Origin: Vicinamibacteria bacterium
Lineage (GTDB): Bacteria > Acidobacteriota > Vicinamibacteria > Marinacidobacterales > Marinacidobacteraceae
Direction of reading: 5' to 3'
Assembly: GCA_964291235.2 (NCBI GenBank)
Contig: OZ219816.1
Span: 832,001 to 896,000, forward strand
Length of the DNA stretch: 64,000 nucleotides
Under the pieces are notes generated by a model. That model ran no database searches, was not told the origin of the DNA, and saw only the letters and a list, made by a program, of their open reading frames with translations. This document shows, one piece after another, positions 2,821 through 58,313 of the stretch; position 1 is the stretch's first letter, and the number at the start of each line of letters is the position of its first letter. A program made the translations under genes and the position numbers.

Positions 2821-4911
2821 ATGCCATCCGGTCCCTCCCGCTACGCCGGACCCGCCGAGCGGGCCGCCCCCTACGCCCGTCCCGGCCTCCCTCCGCCGCA
2901 GTCCGCGCGTCCCTTCCGGGTGGTGAGTCCGTTCGAGCCCCGGGGCGACCAGCAGCAGGCGATCCACCAGCTCGTCGAGGGGCTCGAGCGTGGCGACCCC
3001 AACCAGGTACTGCTCGGCGTCACCGGTTCCGGCAAGACGTTCTCCGTGGCCCGCGTGATCGAGGCGGTCAACCGCCCCGCACTCGTCATCGCGCACAACA
3101 AGACGCTGGCGGCCCAGCTCTACCAGGAGTTCCGGAGCTTTTTCCCGGACAACGCCGTCGAGTATTTCGTCAGCTACTACGACTACTACCAGCCCGAGGC
3201 CTACGTGCCGGCGAGCGACACCTATATCGAGAAGGAGGCGACCATCAACGACGAAATCGATCGCCTTCGGCTGTCGGCCACCCGGTCGCTGTTCGAGCGC
3301 CGGGACGTGCTGATCGTCGCCAGTGTTTCGTGCATCTACGGCCTCGGATCACCGGAGGCGTACTACGGGATGCTCCTGGTGTTCGAGGAAGGGGCCGAGT
3401 TCCCGTCCCGGCAGGCTCTCCTCCGCAAACTGGTTGAAATGCAGTACGAGCGCAACGACGCCTCGCTCGAACGAGGACGGTTCCGGGTGCGGGGAGACAC
3501 CGTGGAGATCGTGCCCGGGTACGAGGATCTCGGCCTGCGGGTGCGCCTCTTCGGCGACGAGGTGGAGCGGGTGGCTCGTTTCGACCCCCTCACCGGGCGT
3601 GAGCTGGGGCGAGAGAGCCGGGCGACGCTCTTCCCGCGCACCCACTACGTGGCCCGGGAAGAAGACCTGGCCCGGGCGCTCGTCACCATTCGGGAGGAAC
3701 TCGACGAGCACCATCCCAAGCTTGTCCAGGAAGGAAAGCTGCTCGAGGCGCAGCGACTGATGCAGCGGACCCTTTTCGACCTGGACATGCTCGCCGAAGC
3801 CGGCCACTGTCACGGCATCGAGAACTACTCGCGCCACTTCACCGGGCGCGCGCCCGGAGAGCCGCCTCCGACCCTGATGGACTACCTGCCGGGGGATGCG
3901 TTGATCGTGGTGGACGAGAGCCACCAGACCTATCCGCAGGTCCGCGGCATGTTCGCGGGAGACCAGGCGCGGAAGCGGACCCTGGTCGAGCACGGTTTCC
4001 GGCTCCCCTCGGCGCTCGACAACCGTCCGCTCTCCTTCGAGGAATGGGAGGAGCGGGTAGGGCAGGCAATCTCGGTCTCGGCAACCCCGGGGCCCTATGA
4101 GCTCGACGCCACTGACGGCGTCGTGGTGGAGCAGATCATCCGTCCCACGGGATTGCTCGATCCCGAGGTCGAGGTGCGGCCCGCGGGGGACCAGGTGGAC
4201 GATCTGCTGGGAGAGATCCGCGAGACCGTGGCCCGGGGGGAACGGGTGCTCGTCACCACCCTGACCAAGCGGATGGCCGAGGACCTTTCCGAGTATTACC
4301 ACGAGCTCGGGGTCCGCTGCCGCTACCTGCACTCGGACATCGACACCCTCGAAAGGGTGCAGCTCCTGCGCTCGCTCCGGCTGGGCGAGTTCGACGTGCT
4401 GATCGGGATCAACCTGTTGCGCGAGGGGCTCGATCTGCCGGAGGTATCCCTGGTGGCCATCCTGGATGCGGACCGCGAGGGATACCTCCGCTCCGAGGGA
4501 GCGTTGATCCAGACCATGGGCCGGGCTGCGCGACACGCCAGCGGCCGGTCCATCCTCTACGCCGACCACGAAACCGGCTCCATGAAGCGGGCGCTCGGCG
4601 AAACCCGCCGCCGGCGGGCGCTCCAGCAGGCGTTCAACGAGGAGCACGGCATCGTGCCGCAGACGGTCGTCAAGGACGTGGCCGAGGCGTTCGCTCCCGC
4701 ATCGGCCGGAACGGCGGCGGCCGAGGAGGACGACTGGGATCGGGCCATGGGTCTCTTGGAGCCGCCGCCGGAGGGTTCCGAGGCGCTCGAACGGGAAATC
4801 GCGCGGCTCCGCAAGGAAATGAAGAAGGCGGCGCGCGATCTGGAGTTCGAACGCGCGGCGCGGCTGCGCGACCATTTGCGCGAGTTGCAGCACGGAGCGT
4901 TACTCCGGTAG
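2821..4911 (+). CDS. uvrB: Excinuclease ABC subunit B
   Basis: [54 protein letters not shown]-terminal UVR domain. Confidence 0.97.
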
Positions 4912-35055: not shown

Positions 35056-35583
35056 GTGGCGCTGAACTTGGAACGAACCTCCCGCCTGGCCATCTGCCCG
35101 GGGTCCTTCGACCCTTTGACGCTGGGACACGTGGACATCATCCGGCGCGCCGCCCGGCAATTCGACCGGGTCCTCGTCGCGGTCCTGCACAACACCGGGA
35201 AGGCCCCGCTCTTCACGGTCCCGGAGCGCCTCAATTTCATTCGCGCGACCTTTCAGGACGACTCGGCCGTGGAGGCGGACGCCTTTTCCGGGTTGCTCGT
35301 GGACTACGCCCGGCGGCGGGGAGCCACCGCGATCGTCCGCGGCATCCGGGCAGTTTCAGACTTCGAGTACGAATTCCAGATGGCGCTCATGAATCGCCGG
35401 CTCGCGCCCGAGGTGGAGACGGTCTTCCTGACACCGGCGGAGGAGTATTCGTACGTCAGCTCGAGGTTGATCAAGGAGATCACCGCGCTTTCCGGCGACG
35501 TCAGCGGCCTGGTCCCGGATGCGGTGGCGCGGCGCCTGGCCGAGAAGTTCCCGTCCGCGCCCAACCCCGCCGTCACCGGGTGA
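35056..35583 (+). CDS. coaD: Phosphopantetheine adenylyltransferase
   Basis: PGSFDPLTLGHVDII, RGIRAVSDFEYEFQMALMNR, YVSSRLIKE. Confidence 0.96.
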   Translation: MALNLERTSRLAICPGSFDPLTLGHVDIIRRAARQFDRVLVAVLHNTGKAPLFTVPERLNFIRATFQDDSAVEADAFSGLLVDYARRRGATAIVRGIRAVSDFEYEFQMALMNRRLAPEVETVFLTPAEEYSYVSSRLIKEITALSGDVSGLVPDAVARRLAEKFPSAPNPAVTG

Positions 35584-35616
35584 TTCACCCCGTGACATCT
35601 CGCTCCTGACATCTTC

Positions 35617-36804
35617 ATGACCGATCCCGCAATCCATCTCGCCCAGCGTATTTCTGCGATTTCTCCCTCGCCGACGATGGCGGTCATGGCGGAGGCGATG
35701 CGCCTTCGCGCCGCCGGAGAGAACGTGGTGGACTTTTCGGCCGGACAGCCCGACTTCGATACGCCGTCGCTCGCGAGGGAGGCCGGGATCCAGGCCATCG
35801 AATCGGGATACACCCGGTACACCCCGAACCCGGGGGCGCCCGATCTGCGGGCGGCGGTCGCTGATTGCTACCGGCGCGACTTCGACCTCGACTTCGGGGC
35901 CGGCAACGTCCTCATCACCTCGGGAGGCAAGCACGCTCTCACCGGGTTGTTGCTCGCCACCTGCGAGGAAGGGGACGAGGTGGTGATCCCGACGCCCTAC
36001 TGGCCGACCTTCCCCGAGCAGGTGAAGATCGCCGGGGCCGCGCCGGTCCTCGCCCGCGCCGGAGAAGAGAGCGGGTTCCGGCCCACCCGGGACGTCATCG
36101 AGCCAGCGATGACCGATCGCACCCGGTGCATCATCTTCAACATTCCGGGGAATCCGTCCGGGGTGGTGCTCTCGGCGGGTGAGTTGGAGGCGGTGGCGCA
36201 CCTGGCGCTCGAGGCCGACGCCTACCTGCTCTGGGATGACACCTACGCCCGGCTCACCTTCGAGCCGGCGCCGGAAGGCGCCTACCGGCGGATGCAGGAA
36301 ATTCTCGGACACCGGTTCGTCATTGCCGGCGGAGCCTCGAAGACCTACGCCATGACTGGCTGGCGGCTCGGGTGGGCGCTCGGCCCGGAACCGGTCATCA
36401 AGGGCGCCGCCTCGCTGCAGAGCCAGATGACGTCCAACGCGAGTTCCATTTCACAAAAGGCGGCGCTCGCCGCGGTGACGGCGGACCCCGCCGGTTTCGC
36501 CTGGATGACCGAGGAGTTCGCCCGCCGGATGGTGCGGATGCGGAACGGCCTGCTGCAGATCGAGGGGCTCCGCTGCGGGCCCGCCGACGGCGGCTTCTAT
36601 CTGTTCCCGAACTTCGAGGCGGTCCTGCGGCCGGGCGAAGGGTCCGGCGAGCTCGCTGCCGCGCTGCTCGACGAGCAGCGGGTCGCCACGGTGCCGGGAG
36701 TGGCCTTCGGCCACGACACCCACCTCAGGCTCAGCTACGCCACTTCGGACGAGATCATCGACGAGGGCGTGGGGCGGATCCGGCGGTTCTTCGCGGCGCG
36801 CTGA
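35617..36804 (+). CDS. Class I/II PLP aminotransferase (aspartate aminotransferase-like)
   Basis: GQPDFDTP, PGNPSG, SKTYAMTGWRLG, LRLSYA. Confidence 0.92.
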   Translation: MTDPAIHLAQRISAISPSPTMAVMAEAMRLRAAGENVVDFSAGQPDFDTPSLAREAGIQAIESGYTRYTPNPGAPDLRAAVADCYRRDFDLDFGAGNVLITSGGKHALTGLLLATCEEGDEVVIPTPYWPTFPEQVKIAGAAPVLARAGEESGFRPTRDVIEPAMTDRTRCIIFNIPGNPSGVVLSAGELEAVAHLALEADAYLLWDDTYARLTFEPAPEGAYRRMQEILGHRFVIAGGASKTYAMTGWRLGWALGPEPVIKGAASLQSQMTSNASSISQKAALAAVTADPAGFAWMTEEFARRMVRMRNGLLQIEGLRCGPADGGFYLFPNFEAVLRPGEGSGELAAALLDEQRVATVPGVAFGHDTHLRLSYATSDEIIDEGVGRIRRFFAAR

Positions 36805-37051
36805 GACGGCGAACCTACGGTCGGAACCACTACCCCATACAGAGCAACGAGCGGGCCGTCCCTCCGCCATTGGTCCAGTCTGCACGCGATCGAGAAGCTA
36901 AGGGGCGGGACCTGCGCGGCAACCGTTCCTAGCTAGCCCGGATTTCTCATCCCTCCGTCGTAGAGATCTATGCAGGATGGTTCCCCTCTCGGCGAGAACC
37001 CAACTAGCCTTGATGTCGGACAGGCACGGGAGCCCCCTATAGGATCGGCGA

Positions 37052-37243
37052 CGTCCTGCGGGAGCCGAGATTCGGCTGCCGTTGTATCAACTCAGGTTGG
37101 CCAATCCGCCGGGAGTACTAACTGAGCCCCGGTGCCGCGAGCACCTACGGTGGACACGTACCCCGACGGATGGCCGTGATGGACGACCAGTGGAGAGTCG
37201 GTTCCAATCGAGAACCAGTATAGGGGCTGGACAGCATCGCGGC
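37052..37243 (+). ncRNA. Putative IS110 bridge RNA (target-binding loop about 37101-37173; donor-binding loop about 37173-37243)
   Basis: Loop 1: GAGCCCC-[GGTGC cgcga GCACC]-taCGGTGG-AC matches target GAGCCC(CC)ACCG. Loop 2: GTGGAGAGTC-[GGTTC caatcga GAACC]-agTATAGG-GG matches donor GTGGAAAGT(CC)TATA. The 5' end is inferred from the TAGGAT -10. Confidence 0.8.
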
Positions 37244-37286
37244 GCGGCGGACCTCCGGCGGAGCGCAAGCTCGAAGGAAGACAGCG

Positions 37287-38549
37287 ATGAAGCAGAAGCT
37301 GAGCTGGTTCGTGGGCATCGACTGGGGCGAGCAGAGCCACCAGGTGTGCCTGTGCGACAGGCGCGGGAAGGTGCGCGGGGAGCGCGCCTTCGCGCACAAG
37401 GGATCGGGGCTGGCGGCCCTGGTGAAGTGGCTTAGGAAGCAGACGGGTGTGCCGCCGGCGCGGGTGGCGGTCGCGATCGAGCGGCCGGATGGGGCGGTGG
37501 TGGCGACGCTGCTGGAGGCGGGGTTTGCGGTCTATGCGGTGAACCCGCGGCAGACGAGCCACCTGCGGAAGTTCATCTCCCACCCGGGGCACAAGAACGA
37601 CCGGCGGGACGCCCGGATGTTGGCCACCACGCTGCAGGCGAGCCTGGCGGGGTTCCGCCTGCTGGTGCCGCTACCGGGGTTGGTGCTGCGGCTGCGGGAG
37701 CGGACCCGGACGGCGGACCGTCTGCTCCAGGAGCAGGTCCGGCAGTGCCTGCGGATCCGGAGTGCGCTGGTGGACTACTTCCCGCAACTGCTGGAGGTGG
37801 CCGGCGAGGCGAAGAACCTGGGGGCTCCGTTCTTCCGGGAGTTGTGGGCTCGGGCTTCTACGCCGGCGAAAGCGCGGAAGGTGTGGTTGTCCACGTTGGA
37901 GAAGCTGGTCCGGCGGTATGGAGTGACCCGGATCAGCGCCGCGCGGATCCAGGCGTTGTTCCGGGAGCCGGCGCTGGTGATGGCGCCGGGGGCGACCGAG
38001 GCGGCGGTGGAGACGATCCGCACGGCGCTCGCACAGTTGGAGGTTGTGCGGGCGGAACTCGTCCGGGCGGAGGGCCAGATGACCCAACTGCTGGACGAGT
38101 TCTCGGAGACGGCGGAGGCCGGGGGTGGTTCGGATGCCACGGGCCCGGATCTGGTGAGCGCGTTGCGCTCGCGCCCGGGCGCGGGGGACAAGGCGCTGGC
38201 CCGGTTGTTCGCCTGGGGCTTCGAGGCGCTCTCGGAGGGGAACTACCGCCGTCTGCGCGCCTACTGTGGGGTAGCCCCGATCGAGGACCAGTCCGGCAAG
38301 TCCGCACAGCTCCGGCAACGGCGCGCCGTTCCCAGTTCGCTGCAACACGCCACCTACATCCTGGCGCGGGGGGTCGTCCGCTGGGACGAGAAGGTGGCGG
38401 CCTACAACCGGAAGTTGAAGGCGGAAGGGAAGCACACGGCCCGGCGCCACCGGAGCATCGCGGATCAACAACTCCGGGTGCTGTGCGCGATGGCCCGGAA
38501 CCGAACCCTCTTTGATCCCAACTTCTCCCAGAAGCGGAGGGCCGCCTAA
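37287..38549 (+). CDS. IS110-family transposase/recombinase (DEDD RuvC-like domain plus Transposase_20 domain)
   Basis: FVGIDWG (D), VAIE (E), KNDRRD (D,D), VYAVNP, AYCGVAPIEDQSGKS (conserved Ser). AAGGA RBS. Confidence 0.95.
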   Translation: MKQKLSWFVGIDWGEQSHQVCLCDRRGKVRGERAFAHKGSGLAALVKWLRKQTGVPPARVAVAIERPDGAVVATLLEAGFAVYAVNPRQTSHLRKFISHPGHKNDRRDARMLATTLQASLAGFRLLVPLPGLVLRLRERTRTADRLLQEQVRQCLRIRSALVDYFPQLLEVAGEAKNLGAPFFRELWARASTPAKARKVWLSTLEKLVRRYGVTRISAARIQALFREPALVMAPGATEAAVETIRTALAQLEVVRAELVRAEGQMTQLLDEFSETAEAGGGSDATGPDLVSALRSRPGAGDKALARLFAWGFEALSEGNYRRLRAYCGVAPIEDQSGKSAQLRQRRAVPSSLQHATYILARGVVRWDEKVAAYNRKLKAEGKHTARRHRSIADQQLRVLCAMARNRTLFDPNFSQKRRAA

Positions 38550-38589
38550 CGCTCTTGCGTTCTCGTGGAAAGTCCACCGGGAGAACTGG

Positions 38590-39316
38590 GCCGGCCTCCA
38601 GGCCGGCACAGCCCGCCGCAGGCGGGCGGCGGGACGGACCTGTCTGGCCAGGATGGCTCCCTCTCTCGGAGAGGACCCCGTGAGCGCGAGCAGCGAGGAA
38701 TCGCCCGCGGCGCTGCGCGCCGCGGTGCCGACCTGGAGGTCGGAGCCCGGCCCGTGCGGGAGCCTGAGTGCCGCGGCTGCTCCGCGTCCACCATCGGGCC
38801 GATCTGCGAATGGACCCGGCTGCGCCAATGCATCGAGGGCCAGCCAGCGGGTGGTTGGGCGCTCTCCGGCCCTGAGGGTGACAGAAATGTCGCTGTGGGG
38901 ATACCGGCCGGAGGTGAACATGTCGCAGTGGCCCGATTTCCGGGCTCAGCATGTCGCAGTAGCGGCACCGGCGCGGTGGAATCTGGGGCAGTATCGGAAC
39001 CGGCGCGTCAAGAGACACTTCCAGGCAGTTGGGAGACACCTACTCTTGCGCACTGCGGGGGTGAAGAGCGATGCGCCGCCCGCGGGCCTGCGGCCCGCTG
39101 TGCCGGCCTGGAGGCCGGCGTTCCCGTGCCGGTGGTGCTGGGGGGGGCTGGAGGGCGACGTGCGTTTCGCTCCCCGGTGGGGAGCGATGCCGGCCGGAGG
39201 CCGGCGCTCCGCTGTCGCGCGTTGTCGGGATGGGGCGCGGTGCGCCGCCCGCGGGCCTGCGGCCCGCTGTGCCGATCTGGAGATCGGCGTTCCCGTGCGG
39301 GCGGTGCTGTGGGGGC
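38590..39316. repeat. Cluster of REP-like palindromes, including two approximately 80-bp direct repeats
   Basis: GCCGRYCT-GG-AGRYCGGC hairpins at 38590-38607 (reverse), 38727-38744, 39102-39119 and 39271-39288. 39068-39148 resembles 39237-39316. Confidence 0.8.
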
Positions 39317-39536
39317 TTGGGAGCGATGCGCCGGCAGACTGATCTCGTCCATTGCCTTACCGCTTGCGCCGTCCTAAAATTACCCGGCGCCCGGCGGGAT
39401 GGACGGCTGCCGCGCTTGTGATGCGGCGGCGCTCCGGCCGGGTCTTTCCCGTGCGGCAAGAACGGCGTTTCGGTCGGGGCCCCGTCCAGGTTTCCGAAGC
39501 GCGCTATCTCACCAACCCCTTTCCCGAAGAGAGTTC

Positions 39537-40937
<1,401 letters not shown>

Positions 40938-58179: not shown

Positions 58180-58313
58180 GGCTGTCCCGCCGCCCCGCTT
58201 TGCGGGGCTGTGCCGGCCTGGAGGCCGGCGTTCCATTGCGGTCGCCCGCCGTCGGTGCTTGGGGGTCCGTCCCGCCGCCCGCCTACGGCGGCTGTGCCGG
58301 CCTGGAGGCCAGC
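58180..58313. repeat. Two REP-like palindrome units (same family as the 38.6-39.3 kb cluster)
   Basis: GCTGT-GCCGGCCTGGAGGCC(G/A)GC at 58212-58229 and 58296-58313, each preceded by GTCCCGCCGCCC. Confidence 0.8.

Follow-up and report, generated by a model that had tools for sequence, protein, structure and literature searches.

The 64,000-nt stretch of DNA analyzed here (the window) raises the question of whether the two ends of a mobile element would assemble a promoter when the element is circularized, and whether such an arrangement fixes where the element begins and ends. A sequence-only reading had claimed both. The interval 37038-38575, together with the duplicated CC core at 37036-37, very probably constitutes one intact IS110-group insertion sequence that, by analogy with IS621, would be guided by a bridge RNA and expressed from a promoter at the joined ends (all coordinates refer to the window and all features lie on its forward strand). 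The element occupies a conserved target site in an Acidobacteriota-type chromosome, with a REP-like repeat next to it. It is an ordinary member of the IS110 family, in which bridge-RNA guidance and, according to PMC11208160, junction promoters are already established, and it introduces no new principle.

Boundaries, core, and target site

The element is 1,538 bp long and comprises a 249-nt non-coding left end (LE; 37038-37286) that encodes the putative bridge RNA, a gene for a 420-aa DEDD/Ser recombinase (37287-38549), and a 26-nt non-coding right end (RE; 38550-38575, delimited from the sequence and a right-end alignment) that includes the core. The left copy of the core was read from the sequence at 37036-37037, and the left donor segment (GTGGAAAGT) with the right core copy (38574-75) occupies 38565-38575. 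Both junctions carry this short CC core rather than a target-site duplication, and terminal inverted repeats are absent (7/30 identities between LE and reverse-complemented RE; best 10/25 over 11 shifts). In PMC11208160, the IS1111 group is defined by a bridge or seek RNA in a long right end and by subterminal inverted repeats of 7-17 bp; with an RE of 26 nt, guides in the left end, and no inverted repeat at the ends, the element does not belong to that group. LE is longer than RE in the window copy, whereas right ends in relatives reach ~207-343 nt and in three relatives the gap in length is smaller or reversed; the RNA is still located in the left end in these three relatives with longer right ends.

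A search for relatives of the recombinase led to three Acidobacteriota MAGs that contain ten related copies, and these have both their ends and their target in common with the window copy. Across 11 junction sets from four genomes, the ends read CC-TATA[G/C]GATC and TTGC[G/A]T-N13-CC around a common target, and 10 of 10 left junctions and 11 of 11 right junctions are consistent with the form left target, CC, right target. The window target reads ...GAGCCC-CC-ACCGGGAG..., and the donor obtained by joining RE to LE reads ...GGAAAGT-CC-TATAGG.... The left target bases paired to the RNA (37030-37036) end at the first core C and are identical at 7/7 positions to RNA 37124-30, while the right target (ACCGGGAGAA, 38576-38585) is identical in 10 of the 11 right junctions, with one change in L007, and in three empty sites. 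GC-rich palindromic repeats stand next to the target or on both sides of it; for the window copy the hairpin is found on the 3' side, where a REP-like palindromic repeat (38590-38629) adjoins the insertion site.

Uninterrupted sites, which are paralogous sites in the relatives rather than alleles of the window's own locus, read ...CCC-CC-ACCGGGAGAAC, that is, five C followed by ACCGGG. One of them lies in L009, and another is present twice, in L008 and L010; the junctions counted from these two have near-identical flanks and may be one locus. Together with the common ends of the ten related copies, these sites bear out the CC crossover core and the boundaries that the sequence-only reading had proposed, as well as the form it had predicted for an empty site, here with five C. 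That reading had also taken the spacing of the promoter to fix the boundaries; the boundaries stand, but spacing alone fixes none of them because spacers of 16 to 18 nt would all do, and it is the empty sites and the RNA guides that do so. Within the 64-kb window, 0 matches to the predicted empty site were obtained with as many as 3 mismatches allowed, no second copy of either element end was found, and no circle or tandem junction was detected in the window and the 10 loci (135 kb).

Recombinase and putative bridge RNA

Judged by its domains and aligned residues, the encoded protein is an IS110-family recombinase. An N-terminal RuvC-like DEDD domain is present with profile positions 1-155 of 155 covered (PF01548, E = 4e-28), as is a C-terminal Tnp domain with its conserved Ser (PF02371, E = 1.4e-8). 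In the alignment with the IS621 chain, D12, D105, and D108 each fall on the matching Asp and E65 at most one residue from the Glu, and S336-G337 falls on the SG of both IS621 and ISCro4.

The putative bridge RNA begins with a 5' stem-loop (37058-37082; alignment columns 23-47), in which four pairs are kept through two-sided changes. A target-binding stem-loop follows (37098-37176; columns 63-141) that is built of basal stems, an internal loop, and an inner hairpin (37131-45), with one compensatory pair and most pairs invariant. The left target guide (LTG; GAGCCCC, 37124-37130) stands on the 5' side of this hairpin, and the right target guide (RTG; CGGTGG) with the handshake dinucleotide AC (37148-37155) stands on its 3' side. 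Further downstream, the left donor guide (LDG; GTGGAGAGTC, 37190-37199) forms nine Watson-Crick pairs and one G.T wobble with right-end positions 38565-74, and the right donor guide (RDG; TATAGG) with the handshake dinucleotide GG (37219-37226) forms 8/8 pairs with the integrated left junction, namely two target C, the CC core, and TATA. Between the donor guides, an inner hairpin (GGTTC/GAACC, 37200-37216) was read from the sequence; L007 carries GCGC/GCGC at this position, pairing there is poorer in L001, and three sequences yielded no consistent outer stem for the donor-binding loop.

Guide pairing amounts to 7/7 for LTG, 6/6 for RTG, nine plus one wobble of 10 for LDG, and 6/6 for RDG, with both handshake dinucleotides at 2/2. 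The latter lie directly 3' of RTG and RDG and pair with partner DNA, as do the handshake guides of IS621 (PMC11208158). The guides occur in the order LTG, RTG, LDG, RDG, each flanking an inner hairpin, and in the polarity of IS621, the rule for which is given in PMC11208160. LDG ends at the first core base, and LTG covers just one core base. Moreover, at two positions changes in LTG are matched by changes in the left flank: LTG reads GAGCCCC in the window and L001 and AGGCCCC in L007 and L008. When the left end was dinucleotide-shuffled 20,000 times, 0 shuffles contained all four guides together; singly, LTG, RTG, LDG, and RDG were recovered in 933, 2,753, 115, and 452 of them. The earlier assertion that four guide matches agree with the CC register holds for these loop guides, but not for two same-sense matches to the flank that may have been among the guides then meant, CGGGAGCC (37059-66) and CCGGGAG (37109-15), both of which were rejected as guides on the grounds that they lie in stems rather than loops. 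An Rfam search of 36500-39500 in E-value mode returned no family match, and the RNA folded as a single sequence was no more stable than shuffled sequences (z = -1.43).

A promoter-like arrangement across the joined ends

At the right end, a -35-like box, TTGCGT (38555-38560), is followed by 13 nt (38561-38573) and the core at 38574-75, and at the left end the core at 37036-37 is followed by TA (37038-39) and a -10-like box, TAGGAT (37040-37045). Joining the ends at one CC gives TTGCGT-N17-TAGGAT, the spacer being 13+2+2 = 17 nt, exactly as had been read from the sequence. The boxes match TTGACA/TATAAT at 7/12 positions (3/6 and 4/6), a weak match to a consensus that is the E. coli sigma-70 consensus and may not be that of the host phylum. 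A scan of the integrated DNA from 36800 to 38800 returned 0 promoter-like and 0 terminator-like sites under a promoter rule of at least 4/6 per hexamer and 9/12 overall, a threshold below which the junction pair itself falls.

Better evidence for the junction comes from comparison. The -10-like box is TAGGAT or TACGAT at the same place in 4/4 lineages, and the -35-like box is TTGCGT or TTGCAT in 5/5 aligned right ends. When in silico junctions were scored by script, the best hexamer pair was the same pair in 4/4 lineages, at 7/12 with a 17-nt spacer, two other pairs tying at 7 in the junctions of L007 and L008. Both the boxes and the spacing of the proposed motif are thus present and conserved in all four lineages. 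In the alignment of five right ends, unbroken conserved columns begin one base before the -35-like box and the sequence upstream is essentially unalignable, so that conservation starts at this box despite right-end lengths of 26 to ~343 nt. The window copy amounts to a natural experiment, since it has lost its right end except for the last 21-26 nt, which are exactly the -35 box and the donor segment; this supports these two as the only essential functions of a right end.

Could the same conservation reflect recombination instead of transcription? With the boundaries unchanged, the conserved TTGCRTTCTC and TA[G/C]GAT might be subterminal sites recognized by the recombinase or the RNA, expression being provided by read-through from an aminotransferase gene or by a hybrid promoter of flank and LE. 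Consistent with this, the boxes are weak at 3/6 and 4/6, the aminotransferase gene (35617-36804) lies upstream on the same strand with no terminator-like site in 36800-38800, CGGACA-N17-TAGGAT is already present in the integrated state, and integrated IS621 is weakly transcribed by read-through, which suffices for excision (PMC13626964). However, PMC11208160 reports that a 22-bp donor is sufficient for IS621 recombination with RNA supplied in trans, and that removal of the -35 stops only the expression of RNA in cis. The -35-like box, at 13-18 nt from the core, lies outside the equivalent of that donor, which argues for a role other than recombination. The T, T, and G of the first box and the TA...T of the second are, moreover, the positions that are invariant in 4/4 lineages, at a fixed 17-nt spacing. 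Recognition sites are accordingly considered an unlikely explanation, and a promoter-like junction is preferred.

In the integrated window copy, the left-flank hexamer CGGACA (37017-37022; 4/6 to TTGACA) precedes the -10-like box by the same 17 nt. It might stand in weakly for the -35 box, bringing the match to 8/12, although it lacks the TT of a -35. The claim that a promoter arises only after circularization is therefore not secure; in the other eight integrated copies scored, the flank hexamer matches at just 0-3/6. It had further been suggested that the outward-facing -35 could create hybrid promoters at new sites. This appears unlikely at cognate sites, where the guides fix CGGGAG: the -10 slot downstream falls in the conserved right target and matches at 0-1/6 in all five right junctions scored in register, and a sixth, L003, scored one base off, also gave 0-1.

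Target recognition and alternative boundaries

The sequence GCCCCC-ACCGGGAGA(AC) recurs within otherwise differing REP-like repeats in the window and three related genomes, between GGA and AC in one repeat type and in the hairpin loop in another. It is conceivable, if quite unlikely, that the target is this portable 15-17-nt cassette and not REP sequence as such, and that either an additional recognition determinant or joint spread with a landing pad follows from it. The right target half is kept for 10 nt even without REP context, as in L001, although just 4 of these bases pair with RTG, so that a further determinant may take part in recognition. The same-sense CCGGGAG, which is invariant and lies in a basal stem of the target-binding loop, is one candidate; the element could alternatively be spreading jointly with its landing pad.

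Boundaries drawn around an AG core, such that the element would run from CCCCCTATA... to ...GTCCACCGGG and leave an empty allele of ...CACGGGAG-AACTGG..., are highly improbable. They are invited by a CGGGAG direct repeat on both sides (37027-32 and 38578-83), by short REP-like copies that read GGGA-AC without the 15-nt block GCCCCCACCGGGAGA, and by the same-sense CGGGAGCC and CCGGGAG of the left end. Yet the uninterrupted sites in L009 and L008/L010 keep ...CCCCC ACCGGGAGAAC without the element, and the left flank of L003 and the right flank of L001 diverge only outside AGCCC-CC and ACCGGGAGAA. Further, one of the stems that hold the same-sense matches covaries and differs in sequence in other lineages, and the CC register accommodates the four loop-located guides as well as the two handshake dinucleotides. 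The AG-core model was rejected on the empty sites and the guide locations, which leaves the CC-bounded element and its joined ends as the preferred reading.

That the promoter-like arrangement at those ends is a functionless chance resemblance is likewise highly improbable. In the window (69% G+C), 493 of 127,940 positions match TTGACA/TATAAT at 7/12 or better when the spacer is 16-18 nt, or ~0.07 expected among the 18 junction-straddling registers, and TTGnnn-N17-TAnnnT has a single occurrence among 127,940 start positions, both strands included. These figures are indicative only, since the site had been seen before the motif class was selected, but the identical arrangement recurs in four lineages with right ends that are otherwise unalignable. 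This comparative conservation is stronger evidence for a promoter-like junction than the chance figures are.

Proposed mechanism and comparison with known systems

The element most likely works as IS621 does: its DEDD/Ser recombinase and left-end bridge RNA would recombine the CC-centred donor with a CC-centred target, and excision would yield a circle. In that circle, 17 nt would separate the -35-like TTGCGT of RE from the -10-like TAGGAT of LE downstream, and transcription would be predicted to start at approximately 37051-54, just before the 5' stem-loop. Transcription from the junction would raise the levels of bridge RNA and recombinase and thereby drive re-insertion, while the integrated copy would presumably be weakly expressed. 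The value of the analysis is mainly for annotation: it defines the exact ends, core, target, and guide segments of an IS110-group lineage, as yet unnamed, from Vicinamibacteria-like Acidobacteriota.

Among IS110/IS1111-family elements, a promoter (Pjunc) that forms where the ends of the circle meet has reportedly been described for IS492 and ISEc11, the same concept as that proposed here. ISEc11 belongs to the IS1111 group, in which the RNA is kept in the right end.

The closest parallels are with IS621 of Escherichia coli, an IS110-group element (PDB 8wt6). Both have a recombinase with DEDD and Ser, a 2-nt core, and a long left end that encodes a bridge RNA, putative here, with target- and donor-binding loops after a 5' stem-loop. 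Shared, too, are the polarity and order of the guides, handshake dinucleotides placed 3' of RTG and RDG, the end of LDG at the first core base, and a target beside REP-type repeats. As in IS621, circularization would join a right-end -35 to a left-end -10, both of them sequence motifs here. In contrast, the protein match is distant (E = 2.4e-6), with 420 aa here and a 328-residue chain in IS621; the core is CC rather than CT; LTG has 7 nt with one core base rather than 9 nt; RTG has 6 nt rather than 4 nt; the right end is just 26 nt; and the host is Acidobacteriota-like. When the protein was compared alone, the best match to a solved structure was the ISCro4 transposase (PDB 9t56, E = 1.9e-7), both domains of which align, including the SG motif. 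With respect to target choice, ISPpu10, an IS110 element of Pseudomonas putida, is reported to have all of its insertions in a single kind of conserved intergenic repeat that contains a GC-rich stem-loop. The likeness lies in a target that is here also beside GC-rich palindromic repeats, the hairpin in the window being 3' of the target.

Identity of the element and its relatives

The sole long sense open reading frame in the region (37287-38549) encodes a 420-aa recombinase and is flanked by 249 nt of non-coding DNA on its 5' side and just 26 nt on its 3' side. A domain search returned PF01548 (DEDD_Tnp_IS110; E = 4e-28) and PF02371 (E = 1.4e-8), and the transposases of ISCro4 and IS621 were the top solved-structure matches. 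The GID, D..D, and SG motifs align with those of ISCro4 and IS621, the residues here being D12, E65, D105, D108, and S336 and the catalytic residues reported for IS621 being D11, E60, D102, D105, and S241 (PMC11208158). The element ends (37036-38575) form no inverted repeats (7/30 identities), a search of the window found no further copy of either end, and the IS1111-group features looked for in the element were absent. All testable defining features of an IS110-group bridge-RNA element were present or consistent, and the sequence-only reading, which had described an IS110 element with a promoter-like junction joined at CC, is correct in its central point. The neighboring upstream and downstream reading frames (35056-36804 and 39399-40937) are of housekeeping type and lie on the same strand as the element; judged by eye, their translations look CoaD-like, aminotransferase-like, and isocitrate-dehydrogenase-like.

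A genome scan for relatives of the recombinase returned 10 loci: six near-identical copies (L001-L006) in the Vicinamibacteria MAG OZ220713.1 (83% amino-acid identity), a single copy (L007) in a Candidatus Marinacidobacterium MAG (64% identity), and three defective copies (L008, L009, and L010) in a further Vicinamibacteria MAG. L008 and L010 carry an internal deletion between near-identical flanks. They lie on separate contigs of one MAG and may be one locus assembled twice; in both, the same deletion starts inside the left donor guide and ends near recombinase residue 170. L009 lacks the 5' part of the element. Its truncated element is bracketed by an 82-nt direct repeat (2922-3003 and 4173-4254, 98% identical) and its right junction (4126-4152) recurs 188 nt downstream as an empty target (4314-4340, 27/27 identical); these repeats suggest local rearrangement or the assembly of mixed alleles.

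Common to all copies are a left end of CC followed by TATA[G/C]GATC and a right end of TTGC[G/A]T-N13-CC. The length from TATA to GTCC is 1,538 bp in the window and 1,725-1,726, 1,864, or 1,138-1,140 bp elsewhere. After the stop codon, the right end of the window copy measures 26 nt, whereas those of its relatives measure about 207-343 nt (lengths read by eye), as though the interior of this end had been lost by natural deletion. When set against the right ends of L001, L007, and L008, the window right end (38550-38575) retains exactly the conserved -35 box and the donor segment.

Boundaries and target sites

Because the element inserts site-specifically, its ends cannot be placed from flank divergence alone: GCCC precedes CC in 10/10 left flanks, right flanks start with ACCGGG in 11/11 and with ACCGGGAGAA in 10/11, and flanks diverge only upstream of AGCCC in L003 and only past ACCGGGAGAA in L001. 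In these two of the six OZ220713.1 copies the REP context is absent on one side (right in L001, left in L003), with ACCGGGAGAA and AGCCC, respectively, kept next to the core; the L001 right end has a 1-nt deletion. Boundary placement rests decisively on unoccupied target copies in the retrieved flanks, which read GCCGGTCTGAAGGCCC-CC-ACCGGGAGAACCGG in L009 (plus strand, 4310) and GGACTCCC-CC-ACCGGGAGAACTGG in L008 (minus strand, 1662), the latter equal to L010 (minus strand, 1399). The predicted form of the empty site is thereby seen at these sites in the relatives. Five C are present in empty sites, five in left junctions, and two in right junctions; given conservative exchange, the circle would therefore have to carry exactly two C, aligned with the final two of the five C in the target. 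The register of exchange is thus fixed by the count of C, and it matches the CC register proposed from sequence alone. The predicted empty-site 18-mer had no match in the window at up to three mismatches.

A family of REP-like palindromic repeats occupies 38586-39330 and 58208-58313 of the window in both orientations, each repeat consisting of GCCGGCCTCCAGGCCGGCACAG and then a second GC-rich palindrome. One of the repeats bears the insertion sequence at its 5' edge. In short copies GGGAAC runs directly into GCCGG, and the occupied copy has an additional block, GCCCCC/ACCGGGAGA plus TGG.

The predicted bridge RNA and its guides

In IS621, the left target guide (LTG) reads as the top strand of the left target and the left donor guide (LDG) as that of the left donor, and the right guides (RTG, RDG) each read as the reverse complement of the core together with the right target and the right donor, respectively (PMC11208160). 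The left end encodes four such segments: LTG GAGCCCC (37124-30; 7/7 match) followed by an inner hairpin (37131-45), RTG CGGTGG (37148-53), LDG GTGGAGAGTC (37190-99; nine Watson-Crick pairs and one G.T wobble) followed by an inner hairpin (37200-16), and RDG TATAGG (37219-24). The four guide matches agree with the CC register, as claimed. When the left end was shuffled 20,000 times with dinucleotides preserved, all four guides never occurred together (single guides occurred in 933, 2,753, 115, and 452 shuffles). Moreover, LTG covaries with the flank (GAGCCCC in the window and L001, AGGCCCC in L007 and L008) and LDG tracks the A/G difference of the right end across lineages. The handshake guides of IS621 are the two bases 3' of RTG and RDG, which after strand exchange base-pair with the other DNA at its positions 6-7 (PMC11208158). 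Here, AC after RTG pairs with GT at the terminus of the right end and GG after RDG pairs with the two target C ahead of the core, so that both dinucleotides are complementary to the partner DNA and not to their own. In IS621 this configuration favors insertion (PMC13626964), as it may do in the window element.

A consensus fold of four sequences comprises a 5' stem-loop (37058-82, four compensatory pairs) and a long target-binding stem-loop (37098-37176), with 8 of 69 predicted pairs compensatory; no consistent outer stem of the donor-binding loop emerged from three sequences. Folded on its own, the window sequence shows no unusual stability (z = -1.43), and an Rfam search gave no match. Two same-sense flank matches, CGGGAGCC (37059-66) and CCGGGAG (37109-15), were rejected as guides because both sit in stems. 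The former is not kept in other lineages. The latter belongs to the basal stem of the target-binding loop, does not vary among four lineages, and is sense-identical to right-target positions +2 to +8, RTG coverage ending at +4; it could be a coincidence or an additional recognition element.

The putative junction promoter and the expected expression of the integrated element

The right end carries a -35-like TTGCGT (38555-60), then 13 nt and CC (38574-75), and the left end carries CC (37036-37), TA, and a -10-like TAGGAT (37040-45). Joining the ends at a single CC separates the hexamers by 17 nt, exactly as the sequence-only reading had stated. Among junctions assembled in silico from sequence slices and scored in four lineages, the best hexamer pair was identical in 4/4 (TTGCGT/TTGCAT-N17-TAGGAT/TACGAT, 7/12), with two other pairs also reaching 7 in L007 and L008. 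In the right-end alignment, an unbroken conserved block begins one base ahead of the -35, beyond which the sequences are essentially unalignable. This box lies 13-18 nt from the core and could be conserved as part of the recombination site; however, a 22-bp IS621 donor, which loses the -35, is reported to suffice with RNA in trans, recombination being abolished only if RNA is made in cis (PMC11208160), and a promoter therefore seems to fit better. Such motifs are sparse in the window (69% G+C): TTGnnn-N17-TAnnnT occurs once among its 127,940 positions on both strands, and matches of at least 7/12 with a 16-18 nt spacer occur at 493 of them. Counting against a promoter, the hexamer match is weak (7/12, below the promoter-scan rule), and the promoter preferences of the host phylum may differ.

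The proposal that a promoter forms only after circularization is weakened at this locus, where flank CGGACA (37017-22) stands 17 nt upstream of TAGGAT and gives 8/12 in total, without the TT of a -35. In the eight other integrated copies scored, the flank hexamer reaches 0-3 of 6. The aminotransferase-like gene upstream lies on the same strand, a scan found no terminator-like site downstream of it, and integrated IS621 shows weak read-through transcription, enough for rare excision (PMC13626964). For these reasons we expect basal expression of the integrated element, with circularization acting as a boost and not as an all-or-none switch. Hybrid promoters built on the outward-facing -35, also proposed, fail at cognate sites: the -10 slot 16-18 nt past it is CCGGGA, CGGGAG, or GGGAGA, within the conserved right target, and scores 0-1 of 6 in five right junctions scored in register (likewise 0-1 in L003, scored one base off register). 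They could arise at off-target insertions only.

Comparison with known systems

Published work already covers junction promoters, REP-type targets, and the guide logic, and the element is a new, unnamed member of the IS110-group bridge-RNA elements. It differs from IS621 in that its LTG extends no further than the first core base, the limit reported for the 8-nt LDG of IS621 (PMC11208158).
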